Source: a virus
Virus genome (UHGV): UHGV-0043900
Length of the DNA: 39,203 nucleotides
Strand: one strand, 5' to 3'
Numbering within the stretch: the first letter of the stretch is position 1; the number at the start of each line of letters is the position of its first letter. The notes under the pieces were generated by a model, which worked only from the letters and a program-made list of their open reading frames with translations, was not told the DNA's origin and ran no database searches. Of this stretch, positions 3,442 through 16,043 are shown piece by piece. Position numbers and translations under genes: made by a program.

Positions 3442-3840
3442 TTATCTGGATTTGTTAACGTCTTTCGTCTCCTCTGGCAGATCTTCATCAAACAACCTGC
3501 CCTGCATCCGATCCAGTTCTTCTTTTCTGACCCGCTTAACCACGCTGTAGACCCACTGAAGCGAAACACCAAACTTGCGGGCCAGTTCGTGGTGGTTGCG
3601 TCCGTTAAACTCCCTGAAGATTTCCCGGTCGCGCTGACTGACCTTCCATACCATGCCCATCGGGAAATAAACGTTTTGCCCGCCCCAGACCTGCATCATT
3701 CGGTTCGCGACGGCCTGACCAATCTGGTCGGCAATTGCGGGCTCAATATCAATAATCTCGCGAACGGTCTCAGAGGTATGCTGTGCCAGTTCCACCAGGA
3801 GTTCCGGCCCTTTACTTCGAAACTGATTCAGGTCGCTCAT
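3442..3840 (-). CDS. mor: Mor/C-family transcriptional activator (middle/late gene activator)
   Basis: 132 aa; C-terminal HTH region REIFREFNGRNHHELARKFGVSLQWVYSVVKRVR matches the Mor pattern; sits directly after the GemA-like gene as in Mu. Confidence 0.7.
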   Translation of the reverse strand: MSDLNQFRSKGPELLVELAQHTSETVREIIDIEPAIADQIGQAVANRMMQVWGGQNVYFPMGMVWKVSQRDREIFREFNGRNHHELARKFGVSLQWVYSVVKRVRKEELDRMQGRLFDEDLPEETKDVNKSR

Positions 3841-4264
3841 GTTTTACTCCCGCAGCTCTGCGCTGCCACTTCTTCAGTTTCTCAATAACACTGCTTGCCT
3901 GTTCAGTACTGAGCCAGCGCAGGGCGCTGATGCCCGTTTCCCGCTTGATCCACCGCGCTAATGCATTTTCTGAACGGTCACGAACAATGCCGGCAGCAGC
4001 CATTTCAAGCCATAGCGCACGGATTTTCCTGGACTGCGGATGGTTATCCAGCTGTAAACCGGAGCTGGCTTTTCCGGCAGGCTTAACGCGAAAGCCTTTC
4101 CTTTTCATGGATTCCAGCACGCAGTTTAGTTGTGTGGTATCCATTCCTTTGGTTGAGGCTTTACCGGTCAGCCCCTCTAACATCTGGCGGTAGGTGTCTT
4201 CATCCATACCCAGTTCATTACGGGCAATATGAATGAGCTGGATAAGACGTTGTTTAGTCATCAT
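3812..4264 (-). CDS. gemA: GemA-like protein (Mu gp16 / DUF1018 family)
   Basis: Motifs LIQLIHIARNELGMDEDTYRQML, KIRALWLEMAAAGIVRD and ALRWL...IEKLKKW typical of Mu gp16. Start set at ATG-ATG 4264 with AAAGGAG RBS. Confidence 0.75.
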   Translation of the reverse strand: MMTKQRLIQLIHIARNELGMDEDTYRQMLEGLTGKASTKGMDTTQLNCVLESMKRKGFRVKPAGKASSGLQLDNHPQSRKIRALWLEMAAAGIVRDRSENALARWIKRETGISALRWLSTEQASSVIEKLKKWQRRAAGVKHERPESVSK

Positions 4265-4469
4265 CGTTGCTCCTTTTACCTGCGCCACCGATATAATCGA
4301 CATATAAAGGAAGCGCCACAGGCCAGCACAGGAACATCACCGACCAGCTAATCCAGTAGCCGGCACCACTGTAACGTGAATAAAACCCTGAACGGCGCTG
4401 CAGTTCAGCAGTACACCAACCGACAAAACAATACCAGAACAGGGCACATACAACAGATTCAGCCGTCAT
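4254..4469 (-). CDS. Small membrane protein (~71 aa), unknown function
   Basis: Internal start of ORF 4254-4625 (MTAESVVCALFWYCFVGW...); two hydrophobic segments; short overlap with the upstream gene. Confidence 0.4.
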   Translation of the reverse strand: MTAESVVCALFWYCFVGWCTAELQRRSGFYSRYSGAGYWISWSVMFLCWPVALPLYVDYIGGAGKRSNDDD

Positions 4470-6826: not shown

Positions 6827-7357
6827 TTACTGCACATCCTGTTCAAAAGGAATTATTGAAAAATCCTCAATATCGCTTTTTATGGTAATACCGGGAATAT
6901 TTTTCACAGCCTCTTTTTCATTCAGGATAGCGTCTTTATTTATTTCCTCTTTTACACGAATAAAGCGCTCAAGCCCCAGACGTCTCAGTAGTTCAATAAC
7001 ATTATCCGCCCCGCGAATGCTGACTGACGGTGGACGGTTTCGCCACTGCACCTCGCCAGTGGTGAGGTTAGCGAACTTCACCTTCCCGTTGCCGGTCAGT
7101 TCGTCACGGTGCGCCTCACACCATGTCTGGATACCGGACTGCAGTTCGGCCATGCGTTTTTTCAGGCTCTCGGTGAGCGGGGCATAACGAGCGGTGATAT
7201 CGCCAATGGCGTCATTCATTTCTGTTTCAGCCCTGACCAGTTCACGTTGTGCGTCACCGAGCAGTCTGATTCCCTCAATGACCTCTTCACGTGTCCCCGG
7301 CACCCAGAGTGCTGCTGCGGCCTTGATACGTTTTGCCCCTTTTGTACTTTTTGCCAT
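6827..7357 (-). CDS. gam: Gam-like host-nuclease inhibitor (Mu Gam / Ku-like DNA-end-binding protein)
   Basis: 176 aa, near-colinear with Mu Gam: KRIKAAAALWVP, GKVKFANLTTGEVQWRNRPPSVSIRG, GLERFIRVKEEINKDAIL, DFSIIPFEQ. Strong RBS AGGAGG. Confidence 0.85.
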   Translation of the reverse strand: MAKSTKGAKRIKAAAALWVPGTREEVIEGIRLLGDAQRELVRAETEMNDAIGDITARYAPLTESLKKRMAELQSGIQTWCEAHRDELTGNGKVKFANLTTGEVQWRNRPPSVSIRGADNVIELLRRLGLERFIRVKEEINKDAILNEKEAVKNIPGITIKSDIEDFSIIPFEQDVQ

Positions 7358-11889: not shown

Positions 11890-12078
11890 TCAGGCTGCCT
11901 GAGCTGTTGATTTCAGCCCCAACTTCACGGCGATTTCATGGGATTTACCGTAACGGGCTTTGGTCTGCCCATTGAGAACGCGGTATACCTCATTGCGGTT
12001 GTAGCCGTTTTCTTCTGCCCAGCGGGTGAAGGTGATCCCGCGCTGGCGGAAGAGAGCTTTGACTTGTTCTGCAGTCAT
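11890..12078 (-). CDS. Ner-like small DNA-binding protein (Ner/Nlp family); first gene of the early operon
   Basis: 62 aa with the Ner layout VKALFRQRGITFTRWAEENGY...GKSHEIAVKLGL. Divergent from the repressor gene. RBS AAAGGAGA. Confidence 0.6.
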   Translation of the reverse strand: MTAEQVKALFRQRGITFTRWAEENGYNRNEVYRVLNGQTKARYGKSHEIAVKLGLKSTAQAA

Positions 12079-12178
12079 CGTTGTCTCCTTTGTTGATGCA
12101 ATGATGTTTGCCTTATGTGTGATAGATTATGGTGCAGATTATCTCACCAGTCAACTTAAAGAGTGCAGAAAAACTCAC
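12079..12178. promoter_or_regulatory. Divergent early-promoter/operator region between the Ner-like gene and the repressor
   Basis: 100-bp AT-rich intergenic region between divergent regulators, with direct repeats of AGATTAT 12 bp apart within GTGATAGATTATGGTGCAGATTATCTCAC. Confidence 0.45.
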
Positions 12179-12517
12179 ATGATCGGGTTACGTATTAAAG
12201 AAGAAAGAGAGCGTCTATCTCTTACACAGCAAGGGTTGGCTGATGCTATAGGTGTGGCAAAGAGAACTTTCATTGATTGGGAAAAAGATCGCACTTCTCC
12301 TACTGCAGTGCAGTTATCTGCACTATCAGAAATCGGTGTAGATATTTTGTATGTAGTTACTGGGGTGCGGAGTCAGCCTGTTGTTGCACCTTATGTGTCA
12401 CAAGAAAAGAAAGAGTTAATGGATGCATTCGACGAAATGAGCCCCGAACAACGGAGGGCAATTCTTGAGGTCGGCAAAGTCTTCATTCAACCCAAACCAA
12501 GCAAACTCGCAGGCTGA
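12179..12517 (+). CDS. Putative prophage repressor (XRE-family HTH)
   Basis: Internal ATG of ORF 12026-12517; HTH LSLTQQGLADAIGVAKRTFIDWEKDRTSP; divergent from the early operon. GC-poor relative to neighbours. Confidence 0.65.
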   Translation: MIGLRIKEERERLSLTQQGLADAIGVAKRTFIDWEKDRTSPTAVQLSALSEIGVDILYVVTGVRSQPVVAPYVSQEKKELMDAFDEMSPEQRRAILEVGKVFIQPKPSKLAG

Positions 12518-12603
12518 TTTTGACCTGGACACAAAGGGCGCGTGGTTGATCTGGATGCTTTCAGAAAACATCGCCAGTGACATAGTGGAAGTTGTTTGGT
12601 TTA

Positions 12604-12637
12604 CCGGAAAGCATTGTGCTTTCCGGTTTTGTTTCAG
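12604..12637 (+). terminator. Rho-independent terminator between convergent repressor and Dam genes
   Basis: 10-bp perfect stem CCGGAAAGCA/TGCTTTCCGG with 3-nt loop, followed by TTTTGTTT. Confidence 0.5.
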
Positions 12638-13398
12638 AAGTTGCAGATTACCAGTTCACGGCGCGGCGTGGGTTTCCCCGCCAGACTGTAGTTGATATTC
12701 ACCGTCTGTATGTTCAGTTCAGTGAACACCCGACGCATCTGCGGAATGTCATTCACCGAGATAATCATCTTTCCTCTGATGCACCGTGCCAGTTCTGCGA
12801 GTAGTGTGTAGTTCTCTTCAGGAAAATCCACACCATAGCCTTCCGTCCCCAGATAGGGCGGATCACAGTAGAACAGCGTGTGCGGACGGTCATAACGCTT
12901 AATGCACTGGTGCCAGTCCATGTGTTCTATCACCGTTCTGGAAAGCCGCAGGTGTGCCGCTGACAGTTCTTCTTCAATCCGGAGCAGGTTGAAGCGTGGC
13001 GGGGAGGTGGTGGAGGTGCCGAAGCTGTGCTCTGCCACCTTGCCCCCAAACGCCTGCTTCTGGAGGTAGTAGAACCGTGCCGCACGCTGGATATCCGTCA
13101 GTGTTTCTTCCGGGGTGATCTGCTGCCATTTGTAGATCTGCCGGCTAACCAGCGCCCATTTGAATTGGCGGACAAATTCTTCCAGATGATGCTTTACTAC
13201 CCGATACAGATTTACCAGTTCACCGTTGATATCGTTAATGACTTCGATCTTGCTGGGAGTCTTGAGAAAATAAAGTGCTGCTGCGCCGCAGAATGGCTCC
13301 ACATAGCAGGTATGGAGTGGGAACTGGGGCAGAATGTGTTTGGCCAGACGACGTTTTCCCCCAATCCAGGGGACGATGGGTAAAGATTGTTCTTTCAT
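12634..13398 (-). CDS. Orphan DNA adenine methyltransferase (Dam/D12-class N6-adenine MTase)
   Basis: N-terminal IVPWIGGKRRLAKHIL, FCGAAAL AdoMet motif and catalytic DPPY (LFYCDPPYLGTEGYG). Start set at the internal ATG 13398 (MKEQSLPIVPW). No restriction partner evident. Confidence 0.8.
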   Translation of the reverse strand: MKEQSLPIVPWIGGKRRLAKHILPQFPLHTCYVEPFCGAAALYFLKTPSKIEVINDINGELVNLYRVVKHHLEEFVRQFKWALVSRQIYKWQQITPEETLTDIQRAARFYYLQKQAFGGKVAEHSFGTSTTSPPRFNLLRIEEELSAAHLRLSRTVIEHMDWHQCIKRYDRPHTLFYCDPPYLGTEGYGVDFPEENYTLLAELARCIRGKMIISVNDIPQMRRVFTELNIQTVNINYSLAGKPTPRRELVICNF

Positions 13399-13457: not shown

Positions 13458-13500
13458 GGAAGAGCCTCGGTTGACTCACAGCTCATACCTGTAAGTTGAT

Positions 13501-13550
13501 GACTCGCCTTGTGTTCGCTGCACAAGGTGAGTCGCTCTTTTCATGTTATT
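13501..13550 (+). terminator. Strong hairpin plus U-rich tract upstream of paralog 1 (terminator or attenuator-like element)
   Basis: 13-bp stem GACTCGCCTTGTG/CACAAGGTGAGTC (one G-U pair), 7-nt loop, then GCTCTTTTCATGTTATTTG. The cassette copy at 14138-14181 has a different stem with the same architecture. Confidence 0.45.
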
Positions 13551-13592: not shown

Positions 13593-13973
13593 ATGGCCCC
13601 AAAAAATATTGAGCGGTTTAATGAAATAGTTGGTGAGATATTTGGGAGACTCTACGAATCTTTCCCCGTCAAAATTGATATAAAGGCAGTTGATATCGTT
13701 AGACAGAATGAACTTACTTTTTTTCTTGATACCGTAGACTGGCTTAAAAACAGTGGCTATTTAATCGGGGCGCGTAGTTCTGGGGGGATCCACAACGCAG
13801 TGCTAACGGCTAAAGGTCTTGAGGTATTAAACGCTACGCCTGGAAGTCTGGAAAAACCGTTGGGGGCCAGAATATCTGACTCTATAAAAATTGAAGGGAA
13901 AGAAGCGTTGCGATCACTGGTTAGCCAGACTCTAGGAATAGGTCTGCAATATATGTCTCGTGGTCTTATGTAA
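13593..13973 (+). CDS. Small protein of unknown function (127 aa), paralog 1 of a duplicated pair
   Basis: Internal ATG of ORF 13509-13973 with RBS AAAGGGAG. Shares FxxIxGxIFxRL, DTxxWL and VLTxKxLxxLNATP blocks with the protein at 14439-14843. AT-rich codon usage. Confidence 0.6.
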   Translation: MAPKNIERFNEIVGEIFGRLYESFPVKIDIKAVDIVRQNELTFFLDTVDWLKNSGYLIGARSSGGIHNAVLTAKGLEVLNATPGSLEKPLGARISDSIKIEGKEALRSLVSQTLGIGLQYMSRGLM

Positions 13974-14224: not shown

Positions 14225-14440
14225 TTATCCGGGGCGATTTTCTGACCTTATCTGGTCCAGGGCATAAGTAATACCTTCTGCAAAAACAGAAGTATCAAAC
14301 TGCTTTTGTATTTCCTGAAAATGAACTGTGGCACGACAGACACTCAGTTCTCCGCGATGTAACCGGATAATATCTTCCAGAACATTGTTCACTGCTTCAG
14401 CACGGCGCTGATGTTCTGTTAACGTTAATCGGGGATTCAT
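14225..14440 (-). CDS. Hypothetical 71-aa helical protein
   Basis: ORF whose ATG overlaps head-to-head with the ATG of the 14439 gene (CATGATG). No recognisable motif. Confidence 0.4.
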   Translation of the reverse strand: MNPRLTLTEHQRRAEAVNNVLEDIIRLHRGELSVCRATVHFQEIQKQFDTSVFAEGITYALDQIRSENRPG

Positions 14441-14843
14441 GATGCACTCCTTAAATGATGATTTTTATGCACTCACCGGCAAAATATTCTGCCGATTACT
14501 GAACACGCATCCGGCACCTCAGGTTTTGATTTATTCTGGTTTTTTCGATATCCCGGACCAGGTTGATCACGACCAGAAAAAGTGCCGGTATTTTATTGAT
14601 ACGCTGATATGGCTTCGGGATAACAGCTATATTCGTTACTCTCAGTTGCTGGCTGTGGGAGCGGCTGATGTCGTCCTCACGGAAAAAACGCTCCGTCTGC
14701 TCAATGCCACGCCGACCCTTCTGCAGCCCCGGCCCGCACCATTTAAAGAGTCACTTCTGGATGCAGTAAAAACCGGTGAAAATGCAGTCATCGCTGAACG
14801 CGTATCCCGGATTATGAGTTACGTGTTTAATGAACGTAAGTGA
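14439..14843 (+). CDS. Small protein of unknown function (134 aa), paralog 2 of the duplicated pair
   Basis: RBS GGGGA then ATG-ATG. Roughly 25-30% identity by eye to paralog 1 over conserved blocks. 3' end overlaps the convergent P-loop gene by 25 nt. Confidence 0.6.
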   Translation: MMHSLNDDFYALTGKIFCRLLNTHPAPQVLIYSGFFDIPDQVDHDQKKCRYFIDTLIWLRDNSYIRYSQLLAVGAADVVLTEKTLRLLNATPTLLQPRPAPFKESLLDAVKTGENAVIAERVSRIMSYVFNERK

Positions 14844-15562
14844 GGTTTATCCGCTGTCTGCATAATCCCGATAGCCAGTGCGAGGGGAAGTAATTCCGGG
14901 GAAGTTCTTTCAAACAGCGATTCCCATTCTCCTCTCGCCATCACTCTGTCCAGCCCGCCCTCCAGTTGCATTTCAGCAATCTTCCTGATTTCCCGGAACA
15001 ACGCCTCTTTGATCACTTCATGCTCAGCTTTATTTTCCGGTGTCAGAATGTATTCGTCGAAGAACCGGGGAGGCTGGTTAACGGGGATTGTGTTCACCGG
15101 GATGTGTTCCTGCTTCCCGTACTTCGGGGCCGAAAAACATTCTGTTGGCTGACCAGTGAGTTTACGTAGCTCCTTCATGAGCAGCTCCTGATCGTAAACT
15201 GCCATCAGTGCCGCAATAGTGGCATGCAGTGCATCGGGCAGTGTCCATGGGTACTGGCCTGTGGGGCATATAACATCCAGCAGTGCATTCGTCCGGAGAA
15301 TGCATCCCTCGCTGTATGACATCGGAGTTTTTTCTGTGTATTCCTCCAGTCGGATAAGTGTGCCTGCCCGTGGTTTCTGCCATGTGCTCAGATCACCCCC
15401 ACTCATACGGCGCTCACCGTCCACGTCTGCGGCGTCGACAATGACGCTGTTTCCGAATTCCTGTTTCACCACTTCCTCTATCCGCGCCAATATGTAACTT
15501 TTACCGCTGCCCACAGGACCGGACACGGTGACAGTGATGACCGGATTCAGTGTCTGCGTCAT
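14819..15562 (-). CDS. Small P-loop NTPase/kinase-like protein (247 aa), unknown function
   Basis: N-terminal Walker A VTVSGPVGSGKSY, followed by hhhhD-like SVIVDAADVDG. Strong RBS GAGGAG. Resembles small nucleotide-kinase or zeta-toxin-like folds in layout only. Confidence 0.7.
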   Translation of the reverse strand: MTQTLNPVITVTVSGPVGSGKSYILARIEEVVKQEFGNSVIVDAADVDGERRMSGGDLSTWQKPRAGTLIRLEEYTEKTPMSYSEGCILRTNALLDVICPTGQYPWTLPDALHATIAALMAVYDQELLMKELRKLTGQPTECFSAPKYGKQEHIPVNTIPVNQPPRFFDEYILTPENKAEHEVIKEALFREIRKIAEMQLEGGLDRVMARGEWESLFERTSPELLPLALAIGIMQTADKPHLRSLNT

Positions 15563-15634
15563 ATCGTATTCTCCTCTGTGAATAATTCATCGTTTATCCT
15601 GCACATCCCGTATCCCCGGCTCTCTTAACGCGCT

Positions 15635-15673
15635 TTAAAATCCTTCGCGCCCTGTATTTGTGATGCTGTCTCC
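15635..15673 (+). promoter_or_regulatory. Candidate activator-dependent late promoter of the lysis operon
   Basis: TTAAAATC-N23-CTGTCTCC with inner CTGTATTT, about 20 nt upstream of the holin ATG. The same bipartite motif at identical spacing occurs at 23030-23068. Confidence 0.4.
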
Positions 15674-15692
15674 ACCAGATAAGGAGACACAC

Positions 15693-16043
15693 ATGAAAAA
15701 CCTGAAAACATTCATTCCCCCTGTTAAAAAACCTCGCCTCAGCGGCTGGCTGCTGACCTCAGTGCTGTTGCTGGGCACCATCGCTCTGGTCTCACCACAG
15801 CAACTGCCTGTTGTGATCTACAAGCTGGCACTCATCACGCTGGCAGCAGTGCTGGGTTACTGGCTTGACCGTTCGCTCTTCCCCAAAGCCCGTCCCGGTC
15901 AGTACCTGAAACATGACGACAGGCTGATGGCTGAAGGGCGTTTCCCGGTACAGACCGGCCTTCACCTGGTGTTTTCTGCTGCGTTAATCCGCCGTGCACT
16001 GATTGTTGCAGCGGTCTGCCTGGCTGTTGCGATGGGGCTTTAA
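15693..16043 (+). CDS. Putative holin (three predicted TM segments)
   Basis: Internal ATG of ORF 15660-16043 with RBS AAGGAGA; 116 aa, three hydrophobic helices; immediately upstream of the endolysin. Confidence 0.55.
   Translation: MKNLKTFIPPVKKPRLSGWLLTSVLLLGTIALVSPQQLPVVIYKLALITLAAVLGYWLDRSLFPKARPGQYLKHDDRLMAEGRFPVQTGLHLVFSAALIRRALIVAAVCLAVAMGL

Follow-up and report, generated by a model that had tools for sequence, protein, structure and literature searches.

The window analysed here, the whole 39,203-nt stretch of the viral genome UHGV-0043900, is a prophage of Escherichia coli and belongs to the BcepMu-like group of transposable phages. Its minus-strand gene at 14819..15562 (P-loop gene) encodes a 247-aa protein, whose first 75 residues represent a rare and uncharacterised, phage-only family of short P-loop domains (mini P-loop domain; window 15338..15562, minus strand). 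The family is a phage-restricted variant within the P-loop world, which comprises the first three of the five β-loop-α elements of the simplest P-loop topology without the rest of the core and, as judged from conserved residues, appears to keep both the phosphate-binding and the Mg-binding motif. The protein may well be an accessory, non-structural nucleotide-binding module, probably oligomeric, that controls variable partner-binding modules in its C-terminal part, even if this functional reading is tentative.

The open reading frame begins with ATG, ends with TAA and is preceded by the Shine-Dalgarno sequence GAGGAG (15571-15576, minus strand; 8 nt ahead of the ATG). It is a real coding gene, since its product is annotated as a RefSeq coding sequence (WP_061892595; on an E. 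coli chromosome of identical sequence it carries the label 'hypothetical protein'), matches phrog_3787 (function unknown) end to end (residues 1-247 vs. positions 1-242 of 242, E 3.2e-149) and displays a ratio of nonsynonymous to synonymous substitution rates (dN/dS) of 0.285 in comparison to the allele of E. coli SK1144 (DNA ~8 % divergent, protein ~88 % identical). Thus, the gene is under purifying selection (dN/dS 0.29 for the whole gene, 0.2 for the first 80 codons). At its 3′ end, the gene overlaps by 25 nt (14819..14843) with the convergent plus-strand gene 14439..14843 (phrog_2266, the second of two paralogs), while its start diverges from that of the holin operon at 15693. A preliminary description, made from the DNA letters, had listed the reading frame with its strong ribosome-binding site, the 25-nt overlap and the transcription opposite to the adjoining late operon, all of which were confirmed.

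An exhaustive profile search (hmmsearch, E ≤ 1e-3) of 1.84 billion representative proteins retrieved 69 relatives, the common part of which covers profile positions ~1-76, i.e., residues 1-75. A second search seeded with 31 diverse N-terminal domains enlarged the collection to 142 proteins with a complete domain, corresponding to 85 non-redundant members at 80 % identity, which are only ~30 % identical overall. The mini P-loop domain is an autonomous unit, because 47 of the 84 database members of this non-redundant family are only 69-90 aa long. The earlier view of a 247-aa nucleoside triphosphatase (NTPase) does not hold, as the P-loop-like unit is confined to residues 1-75 and only these are conserved across the family. 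The phrog_3787 family describes the fused protein of the E. coli type, in which the mini-domain is not split from the tail; standalone homologs match its first ~75 positions. A word-indexed search with the window protein returned almost only E. coli copies, and a scan of genome contigs (one genome per species) revealed no relative. The idea of a DNA mimic was rejected (N-terminal domain with isoelectric point ~5 and median charge −3).

The elements of the domain are arranged in the order β1, Walker A, α1, β2, ER loop and β3, the latter ending in Glu74. The Walker A motif GPVGSGKS (residues 15-22; 15497..15520, minus strand), correctly recognised in the preliminary description, is the hallmark expected for the P-loop superfamily and conforms to the canonical GxxxxGK[ST] in 81 of the 85 members; Gly20 and Lys21 are invariant (85/85), and the Mg-ligand position 22 is occupied by serine or threonine in 83/85. 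Strand β3 (TLIRLEE, residues 68-74; 15341..15361, minus strand) is a Walker-B-like hydrophobic strand with Glu74 retained in 83/85 members. In contrast, the segment VIVDAADVD (residues 40-48; 15419..15445, minus strand), previously proposed as probable Walker B, does exist but forms strand β2 and a loop without conserved acidic motif: Asp43 is found in only 18/85 members, and the conserved acidic residue is Glu74. Glu50 (71/85) and Arg51 (arginine or lysine in 63/85) reside in a loop or helix following β2 (15410..15415, minus strand).

Where the P-loop topology is at its simplest, Walker B is located at the tip of β3 and the minimal domain consists of five β-loop-α elements (PMC7758060). Such a five-element core is not present in the mini P-loop family, the conserved unit of which comprises ~70-75 aa with three predicted strands. 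Relative to classical kinase/GTPase-class P-loop NTPases (simplest topology, 2-3-1-4-5; nucleotide kinases and SIMIBI GTPases are examples) with their minimum of five elements, the mini P-loop domain also lacks the base-recognition, LID, switch and signature segments.

Structure prediction with AlphaFold2 (AF2) for the full-length protein (six sequences) resulted in an unusable model with a predicted local distance difference test (pLDDT) score of 37; strands at residues 10-13 and 69-72, the all-helical tail and the Walker-B-type placement of the Glu74 strand (β3) beside β1 are seen only in this low-confidence model. Residues 1-81 (31 sequences) were modelled with a pLDDT of 88 and a predicted template modelling score of 0.73, displaying helices at 21-39, directly after Walker A, and at 45-54. 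DSSP assigns no sheet in this monomer, and a confident monomer model without a closed sheet would fit a unit that needs partners. A Foldseek search of the model against PDB gave no match, and that against BFVD only a single one, an 82-aa phage protein (28 % identity) which is probably a family member. At the sequence level, the family profile matched ABC proteins and kinases of PDB only across strand-P-loop-helix segments; further matches were 9jix, a de novo designed ATPase (E 4e-5, profile positions 7-72), and 6c2u (E 4.5e-4). Thus, the putative P-loop assignment builds on very strong motif conservation combined with weak fold evidence.

Neither the protein, nor the family or the tail modules are matched above threshold by any model of Pfam, NCBIfam or PADLOC, the matches obtained representing generic strand-Walker A-helix segments (residues ~3-50). 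The ABC_tran model aligns with profile positions ~5-52 of 137 below its cut-off of 25 bits, PDB matches to ABC proteins span only 20-35 residues, and the ABC signature, Q-loop and H-loop of ABC-type, AAA_21 or OLD-family ATPases were not found after Walker A. Similarly, the KAP NTPase model (PF07693) scores 13.4-15.8 bits vs. a cut-off of 20; the designations 'KAP family NTPase' and 'ABC transporter ATPase' are automatic names attached to truncated alleles only. Best match in PADLOC-DB v2 is Csx3-AAA (E 2.9e-4, residues 7-50), and the 31 members searched match only generic ATPase heads. The earlier characterisation as a real P-loop-bearing accessory prophage gene that no annotation places is borne out.

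The C-terminal ~170 residues (76-247) consist of lineage-specific modules for which helices are predicted at low confidence. In the BcepMu-like group, the region past residue ~75 is a mosaic of short modules recurring in varied combinations. Module C (residues 106-136, LPDALHATIAALMAVYDQELLMKELRKL; 15155..15247, minus strand) recurs at the C-terminus of other members and is likewise the final segment of proteins devoid of a P-loop (P0058 and P0060). Module D (residues 190-235; 14858..14995, minus strand) is encoded by a separate 76-aa gene in the distantly related locus L014 (pairwise E 1e-6), and similar segments are present in P0029, P0035 and P0038. Locus L014 (6001-7531) contains three co-directional, overlapping or abutting genes, encoding (i) a mini P-loop protein of 88 aa, (ii) a protein of 161 aa, the gene of which overlaps the former by 4 nt and which ends in module C, and (iii) the 76-aa protein corresponding to module D. 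This pattern of fission and fusion, with genes split in L014 and fused in the window, argues that the mini-domain and the tail modules may work together. Outside the BcepMu-like group, the same N-terminal domain is fused to other, unrelated C-terminal domains, and within E. coli, alleles with other or truncated tails occur (141 aa, 158 aa and others). A Pfam search with all tails yielded no family match. Eighteen matches of module C to the 2018-aa protein P0048 were discarded as spurious, P0048 being an immunoglobulin-repeat protein. The 161-aa gene following the P-loop gene in Acinetobacter prophages (weakly NinB-like) has no relationship to the 161-aa gene of L014. In L014, a convergent phrog_2266 homolog (188 aa) overlaps the last of the three genes by 45 nt, so that the convergent 3′ overlap known from the window is encountered again in a remote relative.

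Every genomic context inspected is that of a phage or prophage, comprising prophages of Mu-like and siphoviral type, contigs of IMG/VR and a Vibrio phage of 130 kb. The family is rare, with 3 occurrences in 50,697 deposited phage records, 2 in 72,556 plasmid records and 26 loci detected when 2.9 million viral contigs were scanned twice for patterns, using sub-alignments of the family. Each of the 15 BcepMu-like loci that were compared with the window has a P-loop gene diverging from the holin gene, with its start ~110-180 bp away from the latter. Of the 14 loci long enough to show it, 13 carry dam downstream at a distance that varies (absent in L041). The lysis module is carried by 636 of 5426 complete E. 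coli genomes (~1/9), including strains of sequence type 131 (ST131); of these carriers, 583 have a detectable P-loop gene, in 483 of them over at least 80 % of its length. The gene is accessory and dispensable, since BcepMu and the Klebsiella phage KP12, the latter with a 94 % identical holin, have no P-loop gene and carry other genes in this slot. Indeed, the slot between repressor (or dam) and holin harbours unrelated genes in close and distant relatives (KP12, L043 3559-4500; BcepMu gp18-gp20, L044 2504-4353), so that in BcepMu-like phages it represents a hotspot for cargo. The gene that KP12 carries at the corresponding position proved to be unrelated to phrog_2266. Analysis of ten cargo proteins of relatives with PADLOC did not provide a convincing match, the only marginal one being LmuB (E 3.3e-4).

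The P-loop gene evolves faster than its neighbours: in the same E. coli genomes it shares ~91 % DNA identity as compared to ~98 % for the lysis genes, and among relatives the N-terminal domain is 43-58 % identical vs. 64-74 % for holin and 68-81 % for Dam. Relative to the common E. coli allele (L003), divergence across window 14225-15562 is mosaic, with a synonymous divergence (dS) of 0.35 in the N-terminal domain and 0.08 in the C-terminal third; the corresponding values are 0 for the overlapping gene 14439..14843 and 0.49 for dam. This mosaic points to recombination breakpoints within and around the P-loop gene.

With respect to function, the near-universal conservation of three residues (lysine of Walker A, serine as Mg ligand, and Glu74) in an otherwise strongly diverged family argues that the mini-domain may bind, and perhaps hydrolyse, a nucleotide or another phosphate ligand. 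Since three strands cannot form a closed core, it would act as a homo-oligomer or together with a partner, and nucleotide-dependent assembly could then control binding by the variable helical modules. The gene would head a leftward unit running in the same direction as the early operon and usually continuing into dam; this orientation, opposite to that of the genes on the repressor strand, together with the position at the head of a unit usually ending in dam suggests that expression probably occurs during lytic growth. Fast evolution and swappable tails are the pattern expected of phage-host conflict genes, and these traits combined with dispensability may suggest a target in such a conflict (counter-defence or host takeover) rather than in metabolism. 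Confidence in this conflict role is low, deduced as it is only from variability and location.

Several observations weigh against the proposed nucleotide-dependent module. A sub-clade of the family (P0020, P0027 and P0032) possesses a degenerate Walker A motif, SGAESSGKN, and therefore catalysis cannot be universal in the family. Known defence and anti-defence families matched neither the protein nor the neighbouring cargo, a sigma-70 consensus promoter was not found upstream of the gene in 15563..15692, and a literature search on the family identifiers was without result. Moreover, a different context was encountered in Yersinia and Acinetobacter siphoviral prophages and in IMG/VR contigs, where the mini P-loop gene (70-75 aa), often beside an HNH gene, is located 0-2 kb upstream of the genes for the small (TerS) and large (TerL) terminase subunits and in two cases (L019 and L020) directly abuts that for TerS. 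This terminase-adjacent context could point to a different role.

Conceptually, the mini P-loop domain resembles engineered P-loop prototypes (6c2u, 'phosphate-loop protein'; 9jix, 'De Novo Designed ATPase PL2x4_2'; bioRxiv 10.1101/2020.07.30.228619) in size and in the shared β-(P-loop)-α build. Engineered β-(P-loop)-α polypeptides of 40-110 residues bind nucleoside triphosphates as well as nucleic acids and function in oligomeric form (Vyas et al., bioRxiv 10.1101/2020.07.30.228619), similar to what is proposed for the mini-domain. However, the prototypes are laboratory constructs, whereas the phage family is natural, selected and known here from its sequences, with similarity confined to the generic motif. 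Natural P-loop proteins have been described as requiring at least five strand-loop-helix elements, shorter ones so far originating from protein engineering as models for the origin of enzymes; a natural family of ~70 residues would test what a sub-minimal P-loop can do. One may speculate, though this is rather unlikely, that the 70-75-residue unit is by itself an autonomous natural NTPase or nucleotide-gated switch with an active site completed only by self-assembly, serving phages as a portable handle under nucleotide control for interchangeable host-targeting (counter-defence) modules. If so, no natural Walker A/Walker B protein of smaller size would be known, and the laboratory prototypes would have their living equivalent. 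An active self-assembling NTPase would be of considerably higher interest than an inert relic or a minor packaging helper, for which interest would be modest.

The most serious rival explanation is indeed that Walker A represents a relic, the mini-domain forming a non-catalytic structural or oligomerisation scaffold that does not involve nucleotide, with function residing wholly in the variable tail or in protein-protein contacts. Such a scaffold would agree with the presence of three strands instead of the five-element minimal core (PMC7758060), with the sub-clade carrying SGAESSGKN or SGAEDAGKN, and with the AF2 monomer lacking a DSSP-assigned sheet as well as nearly empty fold searches. It is nevertheless considered unlikely, because retention of GxxxxGK[ST], the Mg-ligand residue and Glu74 in 81, 83 and 83 of the 85 members, respectively, at ~30 % identity is hard to explain without ligand binding, and since the dN/dS of the N-terminal domain is as low as 0.2.

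A contribution to DNA packaging or late morphogenesis together with the small terminase subunit, e.g., as nucleotide-binding helper at the start of packaging, appears improbable. The siphoviral prophages and viral contigs with the gene abutting that for TerS (L019, L020) or located 0.1-2 kb upstream of those for TerS/TerL are in favour of such a function, as is the border position in BcepMu-like phages next to the late operon that contains both terminase genes. However, transcription in the BcepMu-like phages runs away from the late operon and towards dam, BcepMu and KP12 possess the same packaging module without a P-loop gene, and the homologs of Vibrio phage 1.101.O and those of large viral contigs are not located beside terminase genes. 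Furthermore, the stretch just upstream of terminase is a common site for accessory genes.

Even less probable is a small nucleotide or deoxynucleotide kinase, i.e., a metabolic enzyme the fold of which would be completed by oligomerisation. In the 130-kb Vibrio phage 1.101.O, the 82-aa homolog (NVP1101O_043, L016 3983-4231) is encoded between thymidylate synthase and dihydrofolate reductase, with ribonucleotide reductase nearby downstream; a DNA N6-adenine methyltransferase is found 2.3 kb upstream. In addition, one metagenomic record is labelled 'thymidylate/uridylate kinase', the order β1-β2-β3 with an acidic residue on β3 corresponds to the kinase/GTPase class (PMC7758060), and weak PDB matches to cytidylate kinase extend over 26 residues. 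Yet this metabolic context is restricted to a single phage, and variable non-enzymatic tails as well as the accessory distribution are unlike a housekeeping enzyme. No kinase family of Pfam or NCBIfam reaches threshold: the guanylate kinase model scores 11.1 bits vs. a cut-off of 263, models of the phosphoribulokinase/uridine kinase type are far below threshold, and Cytidylate_kin matches weakly in only 4 of 31 members. A confident assignment as deoxynucleoside monophosphate kinase, named beforehand in the preliminary description as the finding that would speak against it, was looked for by profile hidden Markov models and was not obtained, the domain of ~70 aa being too short for nucleoside monophosphate (NMP)-binding and LID regions.

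The zeta-type toxin or nucleotide-modifying abortive-infection/defence effector contemplated at the outset, i.e., prophage cargo neutralised by a neighbouring small gene, is very improbable: a location in the variable cargo region between repressor and lysis genes, the overlap with a convergent small gene (recurring in L014), and generic sub-threshold matches to Zeta_toxin, KAP and AAA_21 are outweighed by (i) scores for Zeta_toxin (PF06414) of only 11.6 bits (full protein) and 14.2 bits (N-terminal domain) vs. a cut-off of 22.3, covering profile positions 15-53 of 199, and PADLOC matches restricted to the generic Walker A, (ii) the absence of a conserved adjacent antitoxin gene, no neighbour being kept across the family and both paralog 2 and the 71-aa gene missing from L004, L013 and L039-L042 which retain the P-loop gene, (iii) the occurrence of homologs outside prophage cargo, namely in the isolated 130-kb Vibrio phage as well as in large viral contigs, and (iv) an orientation in common with the early lytic operon rather than the repressor. 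Zeta/PezT toxins share the near-N-terminal Walker A and the location on mobile elements, but differ in that the mini P-loop protein offers no room for the zeta substrate-binding fold and has no epsilon-like partner.

The com-mom unit of phage Mu is a late DNA-modification unit in which a small leading gene precedes the one for DNA modification, and Com is a zinc-finger translational activator. The arrangement in the window could be viewed as analogous, inasmuch as the P-loop gene is followed by dam in a transposable phage with a Mor/C-family activator and the unit starts beside the late lysis promoter region. Different from com-mom, the first gene encodes a P-loop protein, which in most other phages is found without dam.

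The closest deposited phage to the window is PhiKM, classified as Bcepmuvirus. The early operon resides on the minus strand and includes the transposase, with genes for a Mor-family activator (3442..3840), GemA (3812..4303) and a Gam-like protein (6827..7357) at its far end; this was the only Mor/C-type activator noticed among the early genes scanned. Beyond the repressor-like helix-turn-helix gene (~12060..12517, plus strand) follows the variable region with (i) the gene for the Dam-type DNA adenine methylase (12634..13398, minus strand), downstream of and co-directional with the P-loop gene, (ii) the two phrog_2266 paralogs (plus strand), and (iii) the 71-aa gene and the P-loop gene (both minus strand). 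The lysis/late operon (plus strand) then opens with the holin gene at 15693 (PF13272, E 1.5e-41).

The two phrog_2266 paralogs (13593-13973 and 14439-14843) share 27 % identity (E 2e-12) and are encoded on the repressor strand within a run of minus-strand genes. A Serratia relative (52 % identity) is termed 'DUF2513 domain-containing protein' by UniRef, and most E. coli carriers possess the second copy alone. The start codons of this second copy (14439..14843) and of the divergent 71-aa minus-strand gene (phrog_4490) overlap by 2 nt (14438-14441), implying that the promoter of each gene must lie inside the other. For the 71-aa gene, a dN/dS of ~1.2 was calculated from five substitutions only. 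A perfect 15-bp stem with T-rich tail (13500-13534, plus strand) resembles a terminator; located between the start of dam and the first paralog, it would end transcripts that traverse dam in antisense direction. Another terminator-like site on the plus strand (12603-12627) follows the repressor gene. A scan of the window against Rfam returned no match.

The 130-bp divergent control region between the P-loop gene and the holin gene (15563..15692) harbours the GAGGAG sequence, a conserved motif and a hairpin covering the Shine-Dalgarno sequence of the holin gene, as inferred from an alignment of six BcepMu-like loci. The motif (TTTAAAGCGCGTTA, 15626-15639) is present in all six aligned loci in the form TTTAAAG(C/G)G..TTA and may represent a late-promoter or Mor-activator site; further copies sought across the window were loose matches, mostly to ribosome-binding sites. 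The Shine-Dalgarno sequence (AAGGAGAC) and the start codon of the holin gene are enclosed in the hairpin GTCTCC...GGAGAC (15657-15695, plus strand). The fold z-score of this hairpin is only −1.6, but both of its arms are invariant in the six loci, which otherwise differ in the spacer, suggesting that holin formation is under translational control via the hairpin.

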